NCBI GenBank assembly: GCA_963803805.1 | Contig: CAWDOD010000010.1 | Location: 224,001 to 288,000, forward strand | Length of the DNA stretch: 64,000 nucleotides | Direction: 5' to 3' | Source: an uncultured cyanobacterium | GTDB lineage: Bacteria > Cyanobacteriota > Cyanobacteriia > Cyanobacteriales > CAWCAG01 | Part shown: positions 42,650 to 54,577 of the stretch, one piece after another | Layout of the letters: every line of letters begins with the position of its first letter | How positions within the stretch are numbered: position 1 is the stretch's first letter | Position numbers and translations under genes: made by a program | The notes under the pieces: model-generated | The model's input: the letters and a program-made list of their open reading frames with translations, nothing else | Database searches by the model: none | Told to the model about the DNA's origin: nothing

Positions 42650-43240
42650 ATGGATGCTAAAGAATTTTTTCAGCATAGTGCTGGTCAATGGAAATCTCAA
42701 CGCACTACCCATCATTTACCCTTTAGACGTGCGGAGACAGGAGGATCAGATATTTATGTGGAGTATTTAGACAAAGCTCATCCTAAAGTTGTGGAAATTT
42801 GTGAGATCCATGACACAGATCCTAACTTAACAGTAGGGGGAGCCTTTGTTAGTTGGAATGGTTCTATGGCTTGGGATAAAGAAGATGAAAATCACGAAGG
42901 AACCACTGTGTTTGCCCTTGTACCTGAAGCAGAAGATCCTCGTAAAGGAAAACTACTACGAGAAAGAGGTTACGCCGAAATTGTTCCTGTGGCAGGACAT
43001 TATGAGATGGACGATGAAGAGGGATTAGTTCTAGTAACGGAATATGAAACCATGAGCATTATTGAGCGTTTTTGGTTTGCTAGTCCTGATATTCGGATGC
43101 GAACTAGTACGGTAAAAAGATTTGGTGGTTTCAATACTGCTACTTTCTGTATAGAAGTTCGGGCAAAACCTGAAGAAAATGAATCACCTCAAAGCAATAA
43201 CCTTACCGAAGAGCCAATCTATAGTTTAAGCGGCTGGTAG
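42650..43240 (+). CDS. cpcS: CpcS/CpeS-type phycobiliprotein lyase
   Basis: EFFQHSAGQWKSQRTTHHL, RGYAE, ERFWFASP. Confidence 0.88.
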   Translation: MDAKEFFQHSAGQWKSQRTTHHLPFRRAETGGSDIYVEYLDKAHPKVVEICEIHDTDPNLTVGGAFVSWNGSMAWDKEDENHEGTTVFALVPEAEDPRKGKLLRERGYAEIVPVAGHYEMDDEEGLVLVTEYETMSIIERFWFASPDIRMRTSTVKRFGGFNTATFCIEVRAKPEENESPQSNNLTEEPIYSLSGW

Positions 43241-43414
43241 GAACAACGATGCTGTACCTGTTATCGGAAGATTTGAGTAAAGATAAGTAACGATAGGTAA
43301 AGTTAATTCAAGAATCAAGATTGTCATTCCCCAGTAAATCCGTAGAGAGTCCCTTCCTAGCTTATGATTGGGATTAAACTTTGCAAACTTTTATAAGATT
43401 TTGGAGGTTCATTG

Positions 43415-44167
43415 GTGGCTATTCCACTTTTAGAATACGCGCCCAAAAGTCAAAATCAGCGTGTAGCTGGATATCTTGTGCCAGGTGACGAACAGCCGAA
43501 GATTTATTCTACAGAAGATATACTTTCTTCTGTGGCGATGGATGAGCTAATTGAAGCAGCCTATCGTCAGATATTCTTCCATGCTTTCAAATCAGATCGT
43601 GAGTCTGTTCTAGAGTCACAACTTCGTAATGGTCAGATTACAGTACGGGATTTCATTCGCGGACTGTTGCTTTCTGAAACCTACAGAAATAGCTTCTATG
43701 AGAAAAACAGCAACTATCGCTTTGTAGAACACTGCATCCAAAAAGTTTTGGGGCGTGAACCCTACAATGAGCGGGAGAAAATTGCTTGGTCTATTGTAGT
43801 TGCTACTAAAGGAATCAAGGGATTGGTTGATCAGCTTCTAGATAGCGATGAGTATTTAGAAAACTTTGGTTATGATACTGTTCCTTTCCAACGCCGTCGG
43901 ATACTTCCTGGGCGAGAAGAGGGGGAACGACCTTTTAATATCAAATCTCCTCGCTACGATGCTTATCATCGCGCCCAGTTGAATTTCCCCCAAATCATCT
44001 GGCAAAACCAAGTGCGTAGCTTCACTCCCCAAGATAAGAAGGCTGTGGCTGGTTCTCCTACTCAATTTTTGGATATGGCACGCAATATCAACCCCAAGGG
44101 TGGTAATATACCCAGGGTTTCTGCGATGAATATCAGCCTTGATAAAGTACCTTATCGTGGTTCTTAA
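43415..44167 (+). CDS. cpcG: Phycobilisome rod-core linker polypeptide
   Basis: [35 protein letters not shown]; hydrophilic C-terminus; GGAGG RBS before GTG. Confidence 0.93.
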
Positions 44168-45621: not shown

Positions 45622-46077
45622 CTAAATACCTGACAGCTTAACTGAAGTAACCCAAGTAGAAGCACCATCCTGCCAATACTCTTTTTTCCAAATTGGCGCA
45701 TTATACTTCAATGTATCAATAGCATAGCTGCAAGCAGCAAAGGCTGCTGCTCTGTGGGGAGAGCCAATGGCGATTAAGACACTAATTTCCCCAATTTTTA
45801 GTTTGCCGATGCGATGGTGAATGACTACTTTTTTTACTTCTGGCCATTTTTGGCGAATTTGGTTAGCAATTTGCTCAAATACTTGTAGTGCCATCGGTTC
45901 GTAGGCTTGATAGTCAAGGTAAGCAACGGTGCGATCGCCTGTTTTGTTGCGTACCATACCACTCATAAGCACAACCGCCCCGTTTCCTGGCTCATCTGCT
46001 AGTTGATAAACTTGCTCAAGGGATAAAGGTTGAGGGGTGATGACCAAGTTATCAGAAGATGATGCTTCTAAATTCAT
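45622..46077 (-). CDS. moaE: Molybdopterin synthase catalytic subunit
   Basis: GMVRN, YQAYEPMA, HRIGKL, SPHR, APIWKKE. Confidence 0.93.
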   Translation of the reverse strand: MNLEASSSDNLVITPQPLSLEQVYQLADEPGNGAVVLMSGMVRNKTGDRTVAYLDYQAYEPMALQVFEQIANQIRQKWPEVKKVVIHHRIGKLKIGEISVLIAIGSPHRAAAFAACSYAIDTLKYNAPIWKKEYWQDGASTWVTSVKLSGI

Positions 46078-46426
46078 AGAAAGTATTTGCTAAGTAAGGA
46101 TTTTAAGATTTTGATATCATTTCTGCCATATATCATAAACAGCTTTTTTCGTCAAAAAAACTTTTTCAACCACCCTGAAAATTTGTTAAACCTAAAACTT
46201 CTATTAACTAAATTCTGCCGCCAAATACTAACTAAATTAACGGTTTATCAAGGTTATAGGGATTGAGTTTGAATTTTAGATATAAAAAGAGCAGTATGAT
46301 TTTCTTGATTTTACCATCAAACGACGCAAATACGTCTTTTTCAGAACAATTTCCCCCTTGACATTTATGAAGATGAAGTTGTGTAAATTCAGGATGTTTA
46401 ATAACAACATCCATCAAGCAAAATTA

Positions 46427-46454
46427 TTACTTATTACTTATTACTTATTACTTA
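46427..46454. repeat. Heptamer tandem repeat (TTACTTA) x4
   Basis: ttactta x4. Confidence 0.9.
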
Positions 46455-46534
46455 TCAGACGCTGCTCCCTATCTTTTTCGGATAAATCAGGTTAAATTAA
46501 CTTGTAGCTATGTAAGTAAGGCGAAGCTCATCTT

Positions 46535-47788
46535 ATGGATGCAAATAATTTTGCTGAACTGAAGTTTTTGTTAGAGTTGGCTTCTTATTCTAACCAAGAA
46601 GCATCTCTTAGTTCTTTTTTAACAAAATCCAAGAGCAAACGAAACAAACTTGACAGTAAACAAAGGGACGAAATTTGTCAGAAGTTAAGGGAAAGGGGGA
46701 TAGTCGATTTTAGCCGTGAGATTGATACTGTTGAAATTGCCCCTCCAGGAAATGCTTTACTAAATTTAGAAGCAAAGGAATTACCAATTTCAGTTGAGGA
46801 GTTTGAAGTATTAGAAAAGATTGCTAAAAAGGGTAAGGCTAAGTTAAGCGACCTGACAACTAAAAAGTTTAAGGCGGCGGCGAGAGATAAAATTCTCCAA
46901 GTTCTTTTGGAGAAAAATTTAGTTTCGGCAGAGATGGAATTAAATATTATCACTGTAGAAATTGCTCCTCCCGGAACTGCTTTATTGGAGTTGGAAACTG
47001 AGGAATTGCCACTTTCAGAAAAGGAATTTAAAGTATTAGAGCAAGTTGCTAAAAAAGGTAATACGAAGCCAAGCAAGATTACTTTTAAGATTGACAAAAA
47101 AAGTCTCGCAGCAGCAGAAAGAGATGAGATTTTGCAAGACTTTTTGGATAAAGGTTTAGTTACCGCGGAGATAGAAAAAAATATCGCCACTGTAGAAGTT
47201 GCTCCTCCGGGAAGTGATTTACTAAACTCTCAAGGGAATAAACCACCAATTTCAGAAAAAGAGTTTAAAGTATTAGAAAAAATTGCTAAAACAGGCAAAA
47301 TAAAGCCTAGTGAAATTAAAAGTCCTAAAGCCGCAGCAAGAGATAAAATTCTGCAAGATTTCTTGGATAAGGGTTTAGTTACGGCGGAAATGAAAGTTAA
47401 GCGCCAAGGGGCAAAAGTTTGGTTAACTGACCAAGGAAAAGATTGTTTAGAGAAAGTTAATCAACATTTCTTCTCTTTGCAAGAAGTTGCAGAAAAGAGA
47501 GTAGAAGTTGAAGAGAGTAAACCTACAGATGAAGAGATTTTCCAAGCGATTAAAGATTTAGATCATAAAATGAGTTTGGATAATTATTTACCAATTTTTT
47601 ACCTGCGAGACAAGTTTCAACCGCCCCTTTCTAGGGAAGAGTTAGATCAAGCACTTTATCGCCTATCAAAAGATGACCGGATTGAGTTGGGTGCGTTGCA
47701 GGAAACGAGAGTTTATAACTCTACAGAACTGAGTGCTGGTATTCCTCAAGATATTGGTGGACCTCTGTTTTTTATCTCTGTTAGCTAA
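46535..47788 (+). CDS. Protein with three tandem winged-helix-like repeats and a C-terminal wHTH-like domain (resembles proteins annotated RcaD-like)
   Basis: Three ~75-aa repeats starting TVE(I/V)APPG; tail LPIFYLRDKFQPPLSREELDQALYRL..GGPLFFI; the RcaD link is from memory and unverified. Confidence 0.65.
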   Translation: MDANNFAELKFLLELASYSNQEASLSSFLTKSKSKRNKLDSKQRDEICQKLRERGIVDFSREIDTVEIAPPGNALLNLEAKELPISVEEFEVLEKIAKKGKAKLSDLTTKKFKAAARDKILQVLLEKNLVSAEMELNIITVEIAPPGTALLELETEELPLSEKEFKVLEQVAKKGNTKPSKITFKIDKKSLAAAERDEILQDFLDKGLVTAEIEKNIATVEVAPPGSDLLNSQGNKPPISEKEFKVLEKIAKTGKIKPSEIKSPKAAARDKILQDFLDKGLVTAEMKVKRQGAKVWLTDQGKDCLEKVNQHFFSLQEVAEKRVEVEESKPTDEEIFQAIKDLDHKMSLDNYLPIFYLRDKFQPPLSREELDQALYRLSKDDRIELGALQETRVYNSTELSAGIPQDIGGPLFFISVS

Positions 47789-47817
47789 TTTTGCAGTAAA
47801 CCAAATTTTTTCTTCCT

Positions 47818-49869
47818 ATGACTCCTATAGATCAGCTTATTGCCCAGGAAGCTAATCCTTTTGATACCATAACTTTAACGCCCGGTAATTTTTGGAAAGA
47901 AGAACAGAAGCAAGAGTTAGTTGTTGATTCTATTCATCAAGAATTAGTTGTTGAAATAGAAAAATATCTTGATCTTGTAGCTAAGGATGGTCGTAGTCGT
48001 AGTTTACTTTTAATTGGAGATTCTGGTACAGGTAAAAGCTATTTATTAGGGCGAGTTAAGAAGTTATTTAACACTAAAGCTTTCTTTGCTTATATTGGCC
48101 CTTGGCCCGATGGTAATTATATTTGGCGACATACATTACGCTATTTAGTTGATAGTTTGATGTATGTGCCAGAAAACCAAGAGCAATCACAACTTTTACT
48201 TTGGCTCAATGGTTTGCTGCAAGGAAAAGAACAAAGTGTTGTTACTAAGTTGCTTGGGGAACGTAAACTTTTCGTCAACAACCTTAGAGCAGCTTATCCT
48301 ACTGGTATTTACAAGGCCAAAGAGTTTTTTACTGTTCTTTATAATCTTACTCAACCTGAACTATATACCCTTTGTTGTGACTGGTTAAAAGGAGATGATT
48401 TAGATGAAGAAGATAGAAAAAGAATTGGAGTTAAACGTAGTATTGATAATGAAGAAGCGGCACAAAATATTGTTGATAATTTTGGTGGAATTGCTAAGGA
48501 TACACAACCGATTGTCCTTTGCTTTGATAATTTAGATAATATCCCCCTCGCTAATAACGGTTTATTGGATTTACAACCTTTATTCAGAGTTAATTCAACT
48601 ATTCACAACCAGTATCTCAAGAACTTTCTGATCATTATTAGTTTTGTTAAAAGTACTTGGCAACTAAATAGTACATCTGTCCAATCAGCAGATAGAGTTA
48701 GAATTGCAGCTAAGTTAGCTCTCAAACCAATTAATTTAGACCAAGCAGAAGACCTTTGGCGAAACCGACTTTATCCTCTTCATCAAAAAGTCAGGTCTAA
48801 ACCTCAATCGCCTATTTTTCCTTTGAGCAAACAAGCTTTAGAACAAAAACATCCTGACAGTAAAACTAAGCCTCGTTCGGCGCTGAAGTTAGGAAAAGAA
48901 TTATATCAGGAGTATAAAAATCAACTCAAGGATAATCTGATTGTTGAGGCTAATCAAGTTACTAGTGAAAAACAACTTGGTGAGGAAAATAAAGTTAGTG
49001 AAGGCAATCAAGTTGGTAAGGATAATAACTCTAGTAATGAAAAAGAGCAATACTTAGGGGCATTTAAGCTTATTTGGCAAAAAGAGTTCAATAAAATCAA
49101 AAAACAAGTAACAAAAGTATCGCAATTCTCATCGCCAGAATTGATTAAAATGTTACAGGAAGCTTTAACTGCTTCGCGGGTTACTAATATTGAAACCAAG
49201 CTTTTAGCGGGGAAGTATAGTAGTTATTCTTTTAAATTTGCCAAAGAGAATGGTACAGAAATAGGAGTAGTTTGGAGTGAAGATGCTAACTTATCAAGCT
49301 TTTCCTTTTTAATGAAGGCTTGTAAGAAAGCTCTCAAAGATAAGCGATGCCAAAATCTCTTTTTAATTCGCGACAATAAATTGGGAAACCCTCAAAATCG
49401 AGGATACAAAGACTACAAACAGATTTTTATTGACTCCCCTCACCAACATCATAAACCTAATCAAGAGTCTGTTTGCTATCTGGCAACTTATCATAGTTTA
49501 GTTAACTCTGCTCGTTCAGGAGAATTAGTTGTGGGGGACGAAACTCCTGACTTAATAGAGTTAGAGAATTTAATTTCCCAAACCAAAGTTCTAGATAATT
49601 GTGATTTGTTGCAGAGACTTTTAGAAAAGGTTGTAGTGACAACACCGCCATCTGACAGAATCAAAGAGATTTTCTTGAACTTAATGATGAGCCAACAACT
49701 TATGGGTAAACCCACTTTGCTTGAAAATGCTAATGTTCAGTTTGCCGAAGCCAGTCCTGAGCAATTAGAAATAGCTATTAAAGAACTTTGTCAAGAACAG
49801 AAACTTAAAATTCTTGACCCCAATGCCAAGCCGGAAGCACAACTAATTTGTTGGGTTCCTCAAAAATAA
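47818..49869 (+). CDS. AAA+/P-loop ATPase with C-terminal accessory domains
   Basis: Walker A GDSGTGKS, Walker B IVLCFDNLD, DWLKGD motif. Confidence 0.8.
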   Translation: MTPIDQLIAQEANPFDTITLTPGNFWKEEQKQELVVDSIHQELVVEIEKYLDLVAKDGRSRSLLLIGDSGTGKSYLLGRVKKLFNTKAFFAYIGPWPDGNYIWRHTLRYLVDSLMYVPENQEQSQLLLWLNGLLQGKEQSVVTKLLGERKLFVNNLRAAYPTGIYKAKEFFTVLYNLTQPELYTLCCDWLKGDDLDEEDRKRIGVKRSIDNEEAAQNIVDNFGGIAKDTQPIVLCFDNLDNIPLANNGLLDLQPLFRVNSTIHNQYLKNFLIIISFVKSTWQLNSTSVQSADRVRIAAKLALKPINLDQAEDLWRNRLYPLHQKVRSKPQSPIFPLSKQALEQKHPDSKTKPRSALKLGKELYQEYKNQLKDNLIVEANQVTSEKQLGEENKVSEGNQVGKDNNSSNEKEQYLGAFKLIWQKEFNKIKKQVTKVSQFSSPELIKMLQEALTASRVTNIETKLLAGKYSSYSFKFAKENGTEIGVVWSEDANLSSFSFLMKACKKALKDKRCQNLFLIRDNKLGNPQNRGYKDYKQIFIDSPHQHHKPNQESVCYLATYHSLVNSARSGELVVGDETPDLIELENLISQTKVLDNCDLLQRLLEKVVVTTPPSDRIKEIFLNLMMSQQLMGKPTLLENANVQFAEASPEQLEIAIKELCQEQKLKILDPNAKPEAQLICWVPQK

Positions 49870-49877
49870 ATAAAACA

Positions 49878-52637
49878 ATGCCTTACTTAAGCGACTCTCA
49901 AGCCATTTGGCAAACAATTAACAAACTAACCCAAGCAAAAGTCCTGTGGTTAGATACAGAAGTGGCTGATTGGCGAACCAGAAATCCTCGACTTTCTCTG
50001 ATTCAAGCTTTAGTTGATGCTAAAGATTTTACAGGAGAAACTGCTTATGTTTTAGATGTTTTGCAAACACCAGAATTAATCAACTATTTTATTAGCCAAA
50101 TTATGGCTAATCCTCAGATTGAAAAAGTTTTTCATAACGCAAGTTACGATTTAAGATTTTTAGGGGGAAACAAAGCTAAGAATATTACTTGTACTTTAAA
50201 GTTAGCTAAAAGTAATCGTCACTTATTGCCAGAAGTAACCAACTTACAACTAAAAACCTTAGCCACAGAATTATGTAACTTTCCCGTAGCCGATGTCGAA
50301 CCTCAAGGGAGTGATTGGGGAAAACGTCCTTTAACAGCGACGCAGTTAAAGTATGCTCAAATGGATGTAGTTTATTTGGCACAGTTACATAATTACTTTC
50401 TCAAACTAACTCCCATAAATGTCAGGAAAAGACCTCTTTCTTCCCTCACTGTCACCAAAGTTTGTTTAGCTTTTGAATGTCCCCGTCTTTTTTATCTCGG
50501 ACATAAATCCGGCGGAAAAACCATGTTCGTCCCTGCTAATAAAGCCCCCGGTATTGGTAAAACCTTTCATCAATTGTCTGATCGCTTCGTCAAACTAATC
50601 AAACAAGAAGCTCAATTTCAACAACTATTAATAGCTACTCCACAACAACTAAATGCCACAGAAGTAGCTCAGAAAATGCAAGAATTATTATATGAATTAG
50701 CATTCTTTCCCTATTTACAAAATGCCATTAGAGTTGATCCGGCTAAAGCACAGCCTCTGTATACAATTTGGCAAGGATTACAAAATCTCATTGCACGTTG
50801 GGCAGAATTATTAGTTAGTAACCGTGCCTTTTGCCCTGCCGAAGAAGTTGTCAGTAAAACGTTCATCTCCCAAGAACTAGACATTAGTTACAAATTTATT
50901 TTAAACAACAATGAAGAACAATTAGTTAAAGGCAGATTTGATAGTTTAGTTTATGACTTTTCCCAACATCGGCTTTGTGTTGTCGATTATAAAACCTACC
51001 ATAGCCCCGACAAATCTGCTCAATTAGCTCAAGTTGCTCTCTATGGTTATATGCTTAAAAATAGAGTGGGAGTTCCCATAAATTCAGCCGTTTATACTGT
51101 CTTACCTAGCTGGGAAGAATCAACCTTAACCTGGGAACAATTAGAAGCAACCATTCATCAACTTATTCCCGAAAAACTCAAACAAATACAACAGTGGTTA
51201 AACTGGCAACAACCTCAAACCAATCCACCACCACCTACCTCTCAACCAGAATTACTTTGTCCTCTCTGCCCGCAACAACAAAAGTGTCAAACTTTCTTCC
51301 CAAATCCTCCTTTAATTGAAGGAAAATCTACTACTGCTAATCCCATTCCTAAACCCAAATTTGCTCCTCCACAAAAATCAACTCTTCCTACTAATCTAAC
51401 TGAAGCAAAAACACCAATTACAGAATCTCAATCTACTGTAGAAGCTAATATTCCTGAAACCAAAACAACACCTCAAACTGAGCCAATTATCGCCCCACAA
51501 GTAATTCTTAAAAATGAGCCAACAACTACAGCAAAACCAGTTGAGAAAACTAACCCAAATACAGAACCTCAACCAACTATAGAAGCCGATAAAATTGGTG
51601 AACAAGTAGTAACAATTTTAAAATCATTTAAAACCGATGTTGAATACTTAGGTGCAGATATTGGACCAGCTTTTATTAGAGTTAAACTCAAACCTAACTT
51701 AGGAGTTAAAGTAAGTTCTTTATTGAAATTAGCTGATGACTTACAAGTACAACTAGGCATTAGCAACCCTCCTTTAATTGCTCCGCAAGCTGGTTATGTT
51801 AGCGTTGACTTACCCCGCTCAAAAAGAATAATTGCCCACTTCAAAACTTATATACAACCAGAAAATTCTTCCCCCACAGCCCCAGTTAAAATCGCCATTG
51901 GCATCAACTTAAACAACCAATTAATAGAAGCCAACTTAGCTGACTCCAACACTTGCCATTTCTTAGTAGGAGGAACTACAGGTAGTGGCAAAAGTGAATT
52001 TTTAAGAGCATTACTCCTCAGTCTTTTATATCGCCATCCCCCTAACCAACTAAAAATTGCTTTAGTAGATCCTAAACGAGTCACCTTTCCAGAATTTGAA
52101 AAAATGCCCTGGCTACTTTCCCCGGTAGTTAAAGATAGCGATCGCGCCATTGAATTAATGGAAACATTAGTCATAGAAATGGAACGTCGCTACCAACTTT
52201 TTGAACTCAATTCCTGCCCTAACTTAACTGCCTATAACCAACACCTAGCACAACAGCAAAAAAAACCAGAACCTCCCATCGTTTGCATCTTTGATGAATA
52301 TGCAGACTTTATGGTAGAAAAAGAAACTCGCCAAACCCTAGAACAAAGTATCAAGCGTTTAGGGGCAATGGCAAGGGCGGCTGGTATTCATTTAATCATT
52401 GCTACTCAACGCCCAGAAGCCAGGGTTGTCACCCCCATCATTCGCTCTAACTTACCTGGTAGAATTGCCCTACGTACTGCAAGCGAAGCAGATTCAGAAA
52501 TCATTTTAGGAGGCAAACAAAAAGAAGCAGCTTGTTTATTAGGCAAAGGAGATTTATTGTTTTTAAATAATAGTAAATTAGAACGATTGCAGAGTTTGTA
52601 TGCTCAAGAAATCAAGCTTAATTTAGTTAATAGTTGA
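49878..52637 (+). CDS. Fusion of DEDDy 3'-5' exonuclease, PD-(D/E)XK nuclease and FtsK/HerA-type ATPase
   Basis: WLDTE, FHNASYD, YAQMD; ECPR..GRFD..VDYKT..CPLCPQQQKC; GTTGSGKS, FDEYAD, ATQRP, LLGKGD. Confidence 0.85.
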   Translation: MPYLSDSQAIWQTINKLTQAKVLWLDTEVADWRTRNPRLSLIQALVDAKDFTGETAYVLDVLQTPELINYFISQIMANPQIEKVFHNASYDLRFLGGNKAKNITCTLKLAKSNRHLLPEVTNLQLKTLATELCNFPVADVEPQGSDWGKRPLTATQLKYAQMDVVYLAQLHNYFLKLTPINVRKRPLSSLTVTKVCLAFECPRLFYLGHKSGGKTMFVPANKAPGIGKTFHQLSDRFVKLIKQEAQFQQLLIATPQQLNATEVAQKMQELLYELAFFPYLQNAIRVDPAKAQPLYTIWQGLQNLIARWAELLVSNRAFCPAEEVVSKTFISQELDISYKFILNNNEEQLVKGRFDSLVYDFSQHRLCVVDYKTYHSPDKSAQLAQVALYGYMLKNRVGVPINSAVYTVLPSWEESTLTWEQLEATIHQLIPEKLKQIQQWLNWQQPQTNPPPPTSQPELLCPLCPQQQKCQTFFPNPPLIEGKSTTANPIPKPKFAPPQKSTLPTNLTEAKTPITESQSTVEANIPETKTTPQTEPIIAPQVILKNEPTTTAKPVEKTNPNTEPQPTIEADKIGEQVVTILKSFKTDVEYLGADIGPAFIRVKLKPNLGVKVSSLLKLADDLQVQLGISNPPLIAPQAGYVSVDLPRSKRIIAHFKTYIQPENSSPTAPVKIAIGINLNNQLIEANLADSNTCHFLVGGTTGSGKSEFLRALLLSLLYRHPPNQLKIALVDPKRVTFPEFEKMPWLLSPVVKDSDRAIELMETLVIEMERRYQLFELNSCPNLTAYNQHLAQQQKKPEPPIVCIFDEYADFMVEKETRQTLEQSIKRLGAMARAAGIHLIIATQRPEARVVTPIIRSNLPGRIALRTASEADSEIILGGKQKEAACLLGKGDLLFLNNSKLERLQSLYAQEIKLNLVNS

Positions 52638-52646
52638 TAATTAAAA

Positions 52647-53690
52647 ATGGAACAAGAAAACATTAGTTGGTCAGGACTGCTACAACAGTTATTAGATCAA
52701 GAGTCTCTTTCTCAAAATCAAGCCTCTATTCTCATGGAAGGTTGGTTACAAGAAAAAATTCCCCCTGTCCTTTCTGGGGCGATTTTAGCGGCACTCCAAG
52801 CTAAAGGCGTATCGGCTGCTGAATTAGCGGGAATGGCCAAAGTCTTAAAATCTCAGTCTTTGCAACAAGAAACTCTGCAACATAACCAACCTGTTATTGA
52901 TACTTGCGGTACAGGAGGGGACGGGGCAGCCACTTTTAATATTTCCACAGCAGTAGCCTTTGTTTGTGCTGCTGCTGGGGTTGCTGTAGCTAAACATGGC
53001 AATCGTTCAGCTTCTAGCAAAGTTGGTTCTGCGGATGTCTTAGAAGCATTAGGCATCAATCTTTCTGCCCCTGCCGCAAAAGTACAAGCTGCCCTACAAG
53101 AAGTAGGTGTCACCTTCCTTTTCGCCCCTGGTTGGCATCCTGCCATGAAGAGTGTTGCTTCCCTACGCCGCACCTTAAAAATTAGAACAGTGTTTAATCT
53201 CCTTGGCCCTTTAGTCAATCCCTTAAGCCCCACGGGACAAGTGATTGGCGTTTCCAACCCTGAATTTCTCACCCCAATGGCAGAAGCCCTCAACCAAATA
53301 GGTATACCTAAAGCTATGGTTTTACATGGTCGGGAAAAACTAGATGAAGCAGGATTAGCAGATGCCACAGATTTAGCCTTAGTTGCCCAAGGAAAGACTG
53401 AAACCACCAGTATCAATCCCTCCGAGTTAGGTTTAGCTTACGCCCCTACAACAGCCTTACAAGGCGGTGACATAGCCGAAAACACGACTATTCTCACAAA
53501 CATTTTGCAAGGTAAAGGAACTAAGGCACAACAGGATGTTGTCGCCTTGAATACTTCCTTAGCTTTGCAAGTTGCTGATGCTGTTCCTTGGGGAGAATAT
53601 CAACAAGGCATCAAGTTAGCCAAGGATATTCTGGGTAGTGGGGAAGCTTGGTTAAAAGTAGAAGAATTAGCCAAGTTTCTAGCTGCCTAA
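52647..53690 (+). CDS. trpD: Anthranilate phosphoribosyltransferase
   Basis: [33 protein letters not shown]. Confidence 0.96.
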
Positions 53691-53741: not shown

Positions 53742-53773
53742 CAAAACTATCAATTGTGCAAAAAAAACTAACT

Positions 53774-54577
53774 ATGGCGATTACGCTCCGCGTAGCAGCA
53801 AAGCTGAGCGCAACTATTTTTATCTTCCTGCAAACGGGCTGTGATTTTCTCTTAGGGTTTGATACCCCAACCAACCCTCACTTACTATTGGGTAATCCTA
53901 GCAATGCTGGATTAGAACCAAATAATTATTTAATAGAAAAGCCTCAATATGTTTTATCCTACAATCGAGAACGGGGAACAGCTAATTGGGTAGCTTGGCA
54001 GCTTAACCAAAGTTGGTTAGGTAAAGTAGAAAGACAAGATGATTTTCGTCCCGATGCCACCTTACCAGAAGATTGGTATCAAGTCAGACCAAACGACTAT
54101 AGAGGAAGCGGCTATGATCGTGGTCATCTTACCCCTTCAGCAGATCGCACAGACACTATAGAAGATAACTCAGCGACTTTTTTAATGACCAACATTGTAC
54201 CCCAAACCCCAAATAACAATCGGGGTGCATGGCGAGAGTTAGAAGAATATTGTCGAGAATTAGTAGAGGAAGGGAAAGAACTTTACATCATTGCTGGAGT
54301 TTATGGGGAAAGGGAAAAAATTGGCCCTGATAGACAAATAACCGTACCAACCTATACTTGGAAAGTTATCGTGGTTTTAGATGAACCAGGAGCAGGTTTA
54401 AATAATATCTCCGAAAATACTAGAATTATCGCTGTAGATGTGACCAATCGTGTCAATACCAGTTCAGATTGGGAAAACTATCAAGTCAGTGTCGATCAAC
54501 TAGAAGCTAAAACTGGCTACGACTTCCTTAATCGTGTTCCCGTCTCAATTCAAGATGTGATTGAAAGTAGAAGGTAG
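53774..54577 (+). CDS. NucA-like DNA/RNA non-specific endonuclease, probable lipoprotein
   Basis: LGNPS, DRGHLTP, TNIVPQ..NNRGAW; LQTGC lipobox-like motif. Confidence 0.88.
   Translation: MAITLRVAAKLSATIFIFLQTGCDFLLGFDTPTNPHLLLGNPSNAGLEPNNYLIEKPQYVLSYNRERGTANWVAWQLNQSWLGKVERQDDFRPDATLPEDWYQVRPNDYRGSGYDRGHLTPSADRTDTIEDNSATFLMTNIVPQTPNNNRGAWRELEEYCRELVEEGKELYIIAGVYGEREKIGPDRQITVPTYTWKVIVVLDEPGAGLNNISENTRIIAVDVTNRVNTSSDWENYQVSVDQLEAKTGYDFLNRVPVSIQDVIESRR

Follow-up and report, generated by a model that had tools for sequence, protein, structure and literature searches.

A chromosomal gene cassette of cyanobacteria encoding a multi-winged-helix protein, an Orc/Cdc6-fold ATPase and a nuclease-FtsK fusion: a candidate DNA-capture-and-degradation system

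We analysed a stretch of 64,000 nucleotides from an uncultured cyanobacterium of the order Cyanobacteriales (positions 224,001 to 288,000 of contig CAWDOD010000010.1, assembly GCA_963803805.1), which we will henceforth refer to as the window, and within it three genes that lie on the plus strand between moaE and trpD. These genes, here called g1, g2 and g3 and collectively the cassette, encode an RcaD-family multi-winged-helix DNA-binding protein of 417 amino acids (aa; 46535..47788), an RcaG-like Orc/Cdc6-fold AAA+ ATPase of 683 aa (47818..49869) and a soluble fusion of an exonuclease, an iron-sulphur (Fe-S) nuclease and an FtsK motor of 919 aa (49878..52637), the first two as delimited in the map of open reading frames (ORFs). 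They are separated by gaps of 29 base pairs (bp; g1 to g2) and 8 bp (g2 to g3). The reading frame of g3 is open from position 49848, and we placed its start at the conserved ATG at 49878 because, in an alignment of 25 orthologues, M1 and Y3 are invariant. Upstream, moaE is read from the minus strand (45622-46077), so that the ORF map leaves a divergent intergenic region (46078..46534) which is presumed to hold the cassette promoter; downstream, trpD follows on the plus strand (52647-53690), 9 bp past the g3 stop codon.

The longest of the three proteins, g3, joins two nucleases to a DNA translocase motor in a single chain (all parts of g1, g2 and g3 described here and below are encoded on the plus strand). 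It begins with a DEDDy 3'-5' exonuclease of the RNase D/NrnC/Rrp6 type (residues 5-176; 49890..50405; PF01612 DNA_pol_A_exo1, E-value 2.1e-27), for which a sequence search of the PDB returned a diDNase ancestor, NanoRNase C, RNase D and Rrp6. Next comes a PD-(D/E)XK nuclease of the Cas4/AddB type (residues 190-471; 50445..51290; PF12705 PDDEXK_1, 2.2e-13) with four cysteines, namely C201 and a CX2CX5C motif at 461-470; Cas4 models match it weakly (PADLOC, 9.1e-07; TIGR00372, 3.4e-06, below its cut-off). A low-complexity linker, recognised by its composition (residues 475-560; 51300..51557; 17 P, 16 T and 9 K among 86 residues) and poorly conserved in its alignment columns, then leads to an FtsK alpha domain (residues 557-646; 51546..51815; PF17854, 3.8e-09) and an RecA-like FtsK beta motor (residues 667-895; 51876..52562; PF01580). 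The FtsK_SpoIIIE model (PF01580) covers residues 667-846 of this motor (2.3e-42), which carries the Walker A motif GGTTGSGKS and the Walker B motif FDEYAD, and a profile match to the FtsK structure 2iuu runs across the alpha and beta domains (5.9e-65). Conservation among the 25 orthologues extends over the catalytic residues of all three parts: D26, E28, N87, D91 and Y159 of the exonuclease are invariant (D163 is kept in at least 90%), as are C201, D355, K372, Q382, Q385, Y389, C461, C464 and C470 of the PD-(D/E)XK nuclease and G698-S706 (Walker A), D806, E807 and Q844-R845-P846 of the motor. No membrane helix was detected in g3 (the highest 19-residue Kyte-Doolittle mean is 1.03) and no Pfam match to the FtsK gamma domain at E <= 0.01; given that the PADLOC alignment of the motor extends to residue 895, no more than about 25 residues can follow it.

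The second protein, g2, matches AAA_16 in Pfam, with a Walker A motif GDSGTGKS, a Walker B motif CFDNLD and some 300 further residues beyond. Its AlphaFold2 (AF2) model is of good quality (pLDDT 83.7, pTM 0.83) and divides into an AAA+ core with a helical lid (residues 6-371; 47833..48930), an alpha/beta domain visible in the secondary structure of the model (residues ~465-570; 49210..49527) and a C-terminal winged helix (residues 607-681; 49636..49860). Structural alignment with VIA-align places the core in the Orc/Cdc6 clade, with Drosophila Cdc6 (7jgr_G; Z 15.9, rmsd 3.4, 241 aligned residues), Pyrobaculum Cdc6 (1fnn_B; Z 14.9) and another Cdc6/Orc1 structure (Z 13.9) as matches, and the top 8 Foldseek matches of g2 are likewise all Cdc6 or ORC proteins (best, 1fnn_A, E 8.4e-05), followed by BrxC and TnsC and also by MuB. 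The terminal winged helix aligns with the cullin WHB domain 3rtr_A (Z 12.4, rmsd 2.5, 71 aligned) and with 3o6b_B (Z 12.2, rmsd 1.6, 67 aligned). The remainder is less readily assigned: neither the C-terminal half nor the middle domain has a Pfam match at E <= 10, VIA-align on the g2 model gave no separate fold match for the middle domain, a PDB sequence search with the g2 profile returned P-loop matches only, and a search of the ESM Atlas with residues 405-683 retrieved only unnamed cyanobacterial clusters. In a profile-profile comparison with g3, g2 shares only the common P-loop (probability 12.8%) and has no match to the g3 nuclease.

A further feature of g2 concerns how it may use ATP. In g2 and in all 79 homologues from the collected loci the Walker B motif ends in D[N/Q]x[D/E] instead of DE; in AAA+ proteins a Walker B motif without DE points to ATP binding with slow hydrolysis. 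Because of this replacement, the sequence suggests that g2 works as a switch or clamp with ATP bound, and not as a fast motor. Across the 80 RcaG-like proteins (including that of the window) the motif also varies by group, being DQLD in the Ga paralogues and DNLD in the Gb paralogues described below, and either of the two in proteins linked to g3.

The first protein, g1, is built of winged-helix units. Pfam gave winged-helix matches below threshold only (MarR, SarA/Rot, HTH_45, ScpB) and a PDB sequence search with the g1 profile gave marginal winged-helix matches only, while the AF2 model (pLDDT 73.5) is a string of winged-helix units whose closest folds in Foldseek are the multi-winged-helix proteins Pol III C82/RPC62 and TFIIIC tauB together with MarR and MecI; neither FokI nor DndG is among the matches in that list. 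The array is also visible in the DNA: three tandem repeat units of 225-237 nucleotides (46727..47400; repeat families D1 and D2, 66-76% identical to the reference copy) each encode one winged-helix unit. When aligned with 24 homologues, g1 has an insertion of about 150 aa that amounts to two more winged-helix units than the usual RcaD of 275-285 aa, and a conserved C-terminal domain (about residues 330-417). Public records that match g1 at 42-47% identity are named "transcription factor RcaD". A preliminary description of this DNA, made by a model from the letters and their ORFs, had given the same ORF positions, intergenic gaps and moaE and trpD flanks, and had proposed a repeat winged-helix protein, a P-loop ATPase with extra C-terminal domains and a soluble exonuclease-nuclease-FtsK fusion with intact-looking active sites; each of these assignments holds in the light of the repeats, models, fold matches, conserved residues and hydropathy described above.

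We examined how the three genes are distributed across 150 genomes sampled from the window's order. A g3 orthologue is present in at least 51 of these 150 genomes (a hand count among the matches listed, with 37 further matches outside it), most of the remaining g3 "matches" being a separate exonuclease (about 310 aa) with similarity to residues 1-180 alone. Among the 51 carriers, 49 have a g2-like gene directly upstream of g3, on the same strand and within ~2.2 kb, the remaining 2 g3 genes starting at contig edges; in 47 of the 51 a g1-like gene precedes the g2-like gene. Of the 150 genomes, 65 have RcaG-like and 67 have RcaD-like genes. The same order recurs in 49 named cyanobacterial loci, 43 of which have g2 upstream of g3 and 37 of which have g1 as well (4 are cut by contig ends and 2 hold motor fragments only). 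These loci come from, among others, Rivularia, Scytonema, Moorena producens 3L, Leptolyngbya PCC 7375, Calothrix brevissima, Nostoc carneum, Prochloron and Richelia; in Moorena producens 3L (L010), for example, an RcaD-like gene (295 aa) and an RcaG-like gene (672 aa) precede a g3 orthologue of 890 aa. Such an order, shared by dozens of genomes, goes far beyond what chance would produce, and the three genes are a linked unit, as the preliminary description had supposed. Its expectation of a patchy distribution proved right too: within five genera the cassette is present in only some genomes (4 of 6, 2 of 4, 1 of 3, 1 of 2 and 2 of 3). Searching for g3 retrieved nothing from the 50 genomes of one large family of the phylum, and of the 9 genomes sampled from other orders of the class 8 were likewise without a match.

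The architecture of g3 itself varies between loci. Forms without the exonuclease (i.e., the Fe-S nuclease and FtsK parts, with g2 abutting) were seen at 11 loci (L019-L021, L023-L026, L028, L029, L040 and L043) and also at L099, in Leptolyngbya-, Phormidium- and Pseudanabaena-type genomes. At L039 (10001-16228) an exonuclease, a YbjN-FtsK protein and a PD-(D/E)XK nuclease are separate ORFs, and at L012 (8054-10246) a 730-aa ORF of TPR and pentapeptide repeats runs into the exonuclease start; a 1541-aa open frame in genome G246 may resemble the latter, and G190 and G154 hold further variants. We also found ORFs of 184-288 aa whose similarity is confined to the C-terminal half of the g3 motor (72-74% identity; residues ~624-914; L046 10007-10873, L047 9986-10822, L049 20225-21007; also G044, G059 and G032). 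These have no g1 or g2 nearby, are additional to a full cassette in Hormoscilla, and may be remnants or a distinct truncated gene.

Given that public records call g3 homologues "DNA translocase FtsK" or "cell division protein FtsK", that the g3 motor is closest to solved FtsK structures and that g3 is the only gene of the FtsK_SpoIIIE family (PF01580) found in the window's genome, g3 could be taken for the organism's ordinary FtsK, i.e., the translocase of cell division that serves chromosome segregation and dimer resolution. The likeness is real: as in FtsK of E. coli and P. aeruginosa, g3 has the alpha and beta motor domains with all ATPase motifs. It differs from canonical FtsK, however, in having neither the N-terminal membrane domain nor a match to the gamma (KOPS/XerD) domain, and it is fused at its N-terminus to two active-looking nucleases. 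Moreover, the matches listed include no g3 for some two thirds of the related genomes, which still divide. The available text of a 2020 review (PMC7766704) covers Synechocystis 6803, S. elongatus 7942 and Anabaena 7120 and lists for them only "FtsK" proteins of the HerA clade, plus one FtsK carried by a plasmid; it names no FtsK like g3 in the first two strains or on the Anabaena 7120 chromosome, so that g3 is absent from this listing of model strains. We regard a role as ordinary FtsK as very improbable.

The names attached to g1 and g2 raise another alternative. In a tree of 65 RcaD-like proteins (ORFs shorter than 250 aa left out), g1 falls in a clade of 28 rows with support values of 100/99, together with six records named "transcription factor RcaD" and the 285-aa protein P0220 of Tolypothrix, so that the labels RcaD and RcaG, given in the preliminary description, are upheld. 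All 20 members of this clade whose context is known lie inside a cassette in the order RcaD-like gene, RcaG-like gene, g3 (hereafter D-G-g3). P0220 is probably the published RcaD, judging by its length and organism, and by way of this identification the published RcaD probably lies within the clade of the cassette; as the clade's 20 members of known context are all in D-G-g3, the regulators studied earlier would belong to the cassette as well.

According to the part of PMC2799420 available, RcaD of Calothrix PCC 7601 (285 aa) binds the cpc2 promoter and affects operons expressed in red light, RcaG is an ATPase encoded downstream of RcaD, RcaD homologues bind DNA in vitro and a homologue in Lyngbya (protein 7968, neighbour 7969) was pulled down on a promoter probe. 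The pair from Calothrix (Tolypothrix, Fremyella) PCC 7601 is homologous to g1 and g2 and has the same order and spacing, differing in that g1 of the window has two extra winged-helix units; this literature casts the pair as light-colour regulators and, in the available text, does not name a nuclease-translocase gene downstream (PMC2799420). Read in this way, g1 and g2 would be transcription factors that coordinate the phycobiliprotein operons, and g3 merely a co-transcribed neighbour with a separate job. Both the cpc2 promoter binding with its altered red-light expression and the Lyngbya pull-down speak for such a role, and so do two observations on gene neighbourhood: genes for a CpeS-type lyase and a phycobilisome linker lie 2.4-3.9 kb upstream of g1 in the window (42650-44167), and a phycobiliprotein lyase gene abuts the cassette on a Pseudanabaena plasmid (L099 9293-9919). 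Yet no phycobilisome gene stands beside the cassette in 13 other loci examined, and the proximity is probably coincidence, though it echoes the literature that ties RcaD to the phycobilisome. Promoter control would furthermore leave an Orc/Cdc6-fold ATPase and a nuclease-translocase unexplained, and it sits poorly with the tight linkage, i.e., 20 of 20 context-known members of the RcaD clade (100/99) in D-G-g3 and a g2-like gene immediately before g3 in 49 of the 51 carriers and in 43 of the 49 named loci. On balance we find purely transcriptional roles for g1 and g2 improbable.

A second module related to the same two families was found in several genomes, consisting of an RcaD-like gene and two paralogous RcaG-like ATPase genes without g3 (RcaD'-RcaGa-RcaGb; L082-L092, e.g., L083 298-5558; L008 1358-6649; L045 1411-6650; L094-L097). 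It either stands alone or lies directly upstream of D-G-g3, which then gives a six-gene array. The Ga paralogues form a clade with 100% support and the Gb paralogues a separate, more weakly supported one (SH-aLRT 89). In the same tree g2 of the window sits on a long branch (1.02) next to the Gb paralogues (SH-aLRT 93), and the discrepancy with the placement of g1 could reflect recombination between modules or a long-branch artefact; as g1 sits firmly in the g3-linked clade, we gave the placement of g2 no weight.

How, then, does the cassette relate to systems that already have a name? PADLOC, one of the programs suggested in the preliminary description, called no system in it: only the FtsK part of g3 matches models (SspH, mad8 and HerA), and g2 matches nothing. 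The accompanying claim that the genes match no named system nevertheless overstates their novelty, as the same architecture is described in PMC10853773 (Rakesh, Aravind and Krishnan, NAR 2024). The available text of that paper, a prediction from comparative genomics without experiments, sets out Orc/CDC6-coupled "HerA/FtsK capture systems", in which an Orc/CDC6 ATPase is coupled to an active restriction endonuclease (REase) and a HerA/FtsK domain and an inactive REase is inserted before the C-terminal wHTH (winged helix-turn-helix) of the ATPase. The HerA/FtsK domain is, in one set, equipped with FtsK-alpha, said to be "captured" from the FtsK of the cell; a subset also encodes a protein that evolves fast and consists of 2-4 wHTH domains; and the FtsK component is fused in others to a 3'->5' exonuclease. 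The predicted role is directed against invaders.

Most of this description, by our count six of the eight features compared, recurs in the cassette: g2 is an Orc/Cdc6-fold AAA+ ATPase with a C-terminal winged helix; g3 contains an active-looking nuclease of the restriction endonuclease fold (PF12705, with invariant residues), an FtsK domain preceded by FtsK-alpha and a fused 3'->5' exonuclease; g1 is a separate protein of several winged-helix units; the domains are spread differently over polypeptides between genomes; and the distribution is sporadic. The alpha/beta domain of g2 at residues ~465-570 is, on the model, a candidate for the "inactive REase" of the published architecture. The neighbourhoods differ, being called "mobile" in that text (PMC10853773) and here chromosomal, among housekeeping genes and syntenic in Nostocales. 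The words cyanobacteria, RcaD, RcaG and Cas4 each occur 0 times in its main text. We conclude that g1-g2-g3 belongs to a class already predicted in print and is not an undescribed system.

Other known machines resemble the cassette in part. DndH and SspH of the DndFGH/SspFGH systems also place an FtsK-type translocase at the C-terminus of a large nuclease-bearing protein, and the PADLOC SspH model matches residues 508-895 of g3 (1.4e-65) over model positions 1339-1737 of 1766 only; the cassette, in contrast, has no equivalents of DndF/G or SspF/G and no phosphorothioate genes, and g1 and g2 match no Ssp or Dnd model. With HerA-NurA (archaea, Deinococcus), AddAB and RecBCD the proposed action of g3 shares, by analogy, an ATP-driven motor that would feed duplex DNA to nucleases of opposite polarity and, with AddB, the Fe-S PD-(D/E)XK chemistry. 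It departs from them in that its motor is of the FtsK clade, neither HerA nor an SF1 helicase, in that there is no NurA, and in that all parts are in one chain coupled to an ORC-like ATPase and a wHTH protein. CRISPR Cas4 was considered for the g3 nuclease and rejected, TIGR00372 scoring 27 bits against a cut-off of 65, no cas gene standing among the neighbours and only the nuclease type with its four cysteines being shared. As far as their available texts go, Kaur et al. (eLife 2020) treat FtsK domains only as inactive effectors in other systems and leave RcaD and RcaG unmentioned, and the diDNase paper (PMC11706625) does not discuss an exonuclease-nuclease-FtsK fusion.

Structure prediction offers a hint that the partners meet. 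A predicted complex between the C-terminal part of g1 and g2 reached an ipSAE of 0.51 (runs 0.51, 0.40 and 0.54; best control 0.00), with at least 81% contact agreement between runs and partner pLDDT of at least 72. In the calibration 58 of 80 solved complexes and 2 of 110 mismatched pairs reached the mark, and those that did so at ipSAE <= 0.60 were only 7 of the 80 but both of the mismatches; as own alignments were used, this calibration is only rough. The model thus weakly suggests that the C-terminal part of g1 binds g2.

Taking these lines together, we read the cassette as a cyanobacterial member of the Orc/CDC6-coupled "HerA/FtsK capture" class, and we infer that g1, g2 and g3 act together. 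That they form a single functional unit for capturing and degrading DNA, aimed at foreign DNA, is a proposal whose chances we judge to be about even. In such a unit, the RcaD-like g1 would bind DNA via its winged-helix array and work with g2, which as an ATP-bound switch or clamp could help to mark a DNA; the two might then recruit or license g3. The latter would form an FtsK-like ring on double-stranded DNA and pump it. Lacking a membrane anchor, g3 would not be tied to the septum, and lacking a gamma domain it would neither read KOPS sites nor activate Xer recombinases. The flexible Pro/Thr linker of ~85 residues would tether both nucleases to each motor subunit, where the DEDDy 3'-5' exonuclease and the Cas4/AddB-type nuclease may degrade the DNA as it is reeled in, much as HerA passes DNA to NurA. 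The most likely target would be incoming or resident foreign DNA, namely plasmids, phage genomes or transforming DNA. What counts for defence is the architecture, the sporadic distribution, the domain shuffling and the expansion of wHTH repeats, domain shuffling and repeat expansion being more typical of conflict systems.

Several observations pull the other way. In 20 loci we catalogued 217 ORFs lying no more than 6.5 kb from the cassette; the 143 that were scanned come from 13 loci, and their Pfam matches include glycosyltransferases, ParA-like ATPases, AlaRS, RodA, LytB, PsaF, MreB/MreC and peptidases. At E <= 1e-15, PADLOC models pick out thirteen of the 143. Judged by Pfam, a defence role is plausible for only 3 of these, namely one type II DNA methyltransferase and two proteins of the Uma2/PDC-S03 kind; another is a TnpB, and the others are housekeeping genes. 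In the 13 sampled loci the cassette is not in defence islands, so that the enrichment proposed as a check in the preliminary description failed to appear. The Nostocales locus is syntenic, with GT4 and GT2 glycosyltransferase genes upstream and a ParA-like gene downstream; among 72,556 plasmid records the cassette is on one, a 329-kb Pseudanabaena plasmid; and no modification gene or other component for telling self from non-self was found within the cassette. Protein g3 is 52-63% identical across families (~70% in the motor), a degree of conservation more in keeping with a cellular function inherited vertically and lost repeatedly than with a defence gene that evolves fast. The "inactive REase" and the kinship with DndG, SspB and FokI that are ascribed to the published systems were not confirmed for g2 and g1, respectively. 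Finally, our literature search found no experiment on any member for DNA degradation or protection, and the sole genetics on homologues (Noubir et al. 2002, cited in the available text of PMC2799420) links RcaD to the expression of phycobiliprotein operons.

The housekeeping context, synteny, plasmid rarity and strong conservation count instead for cellular repair or maintenance. The cassette may be a machine for DNA repair or recombination, analogous to HerA-NurA or AddAB but made as a single chain; in polyploid cyanobacteria without RecBCD it would resect broken DNA ends or clear away chromosome copies that are damaged or in excess. A motor with two nucleases fits end resection equally well, and a Cas4/AddB-type Fe-S nuclease is the kind that AddAB uses. 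A search for RecC (PF04257) that detected it in the E. coli control was negative in all 151 genomes of the order; the locus is chromosomal, lies among housekeeping genes and is syntenic in Nostocales, and the g3 sequence is strongly conserved. On the other hand, about two thirds of the sampled genomes of the order are without g3 (among the matches listed) and also without RecC; as the genomes that lack g3 lack RecC too, the cassette is not a needed substitute for RecBCD. A patchy presence within genera is likewise at odds with repair, as are an ORC-like ATPase and a variable multi-wHTH partner, which are foreign to known resection machines, and the domain shuffling and repeat expansion noted above. 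Complementarity between g3 and RecBCD, which we also considered, was dropped, since with RecC in 0 of 151 genomes no anti-correlation is possible. We consider a repair machine rather unlikely.

A related proposal combines parts of the above: the cassette might be not an immunity system but a site-directed machine for processing chromosomal DNA, in which RcaD picks genomic sites, the ORC-like RcaG loads a nuclease-tipped FtsK ring, and local pumping and degradation remodel or remove chromosome copies in polyploid filamentous cyanobacteria. It would explain the stable, syntenic, housekeeping-type locus and, equally, the presence of RcaD on the phycocyanin promoter and the effects on operons; we give it little credence all the same.

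Should the capture-and-degradation reading be true, the cassette would be a compact DNA shredder of one motor and two nucleases steered by an ORC-like ATPase, a mode of action so far undemonstrated for any system. Among the matches listed, roughly one in three sampled genomes of this large cyanobacterial order has the cassette, including Nostoc-, Calothrix-, Moorena- and Leptolyngbya-type strains, and its absence from three standard model strains (Synechocystis 6803, S. elongatus 7942 and Anabaena 7120) may explain why it has gone unstudied. In filamentous cyanobacteria, the cassette could count among the obstacles to transformation and plasmid transfer. The 20-year-old assignment of RcaD and RcaG as "chromatic adaptation regulators" would be re-read, as by gene order and phylogeny they belong to a nuclease-translocase cassette.

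Around the cassette the window is ordinary cyanobacterial chromosome. Upstream lie genes for the CpeS-type lyase, the phycobilisome linker, DapB, a small thioredoxin-like ferredoxin and MoaE, and downstream those for TrpD, a NucA-type non-specific endonuclease, an ABC transporter, DUF3038 and DUF4335. The G+C content of the cassette (0.34-0.38) is somewhat lower than that of its flanks (0.40-0.43). A consensus scan found no sigma-70-like site on the plus strand in 46078-46534; the scans were no better than chance, both for promoter-like sites (21, against 16.8 expected from shuffled sequences) and for terminator-like sites (5, against 6.6 expected). Given the 9-bp gap and no terminator-like site between g3 and trpD, trpD may share a transcript with the cassette.

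Three further genes near the cassette, or related to it, deserve mention. The gene next after trpD in the window (53756-54577) encodes the NucA-type DNA/RNA non-specific endonuclease (PF01223, 2e-61). In Nostocales and Aliterella, a gene for a ParA/MinD-like ATPase of 294-303 aa recurs just downstream of the cassette (L031 12765-13649, L037 12702-13598, L053 14232-15143, L002 16311-17195), which may reflect nothing more than synteny or else a functional tie with DNA partitioning. The standalone 3'-5' exonuclease of ~310 aa, which is 50-60% identical to residues 1-180 of g3, had no match at E <= 1e-10 in the genome that the window comes from; it is widespread in the order and sometimes lies a few kb from the cassette (L008 17091-18014, L017 13252-14181).

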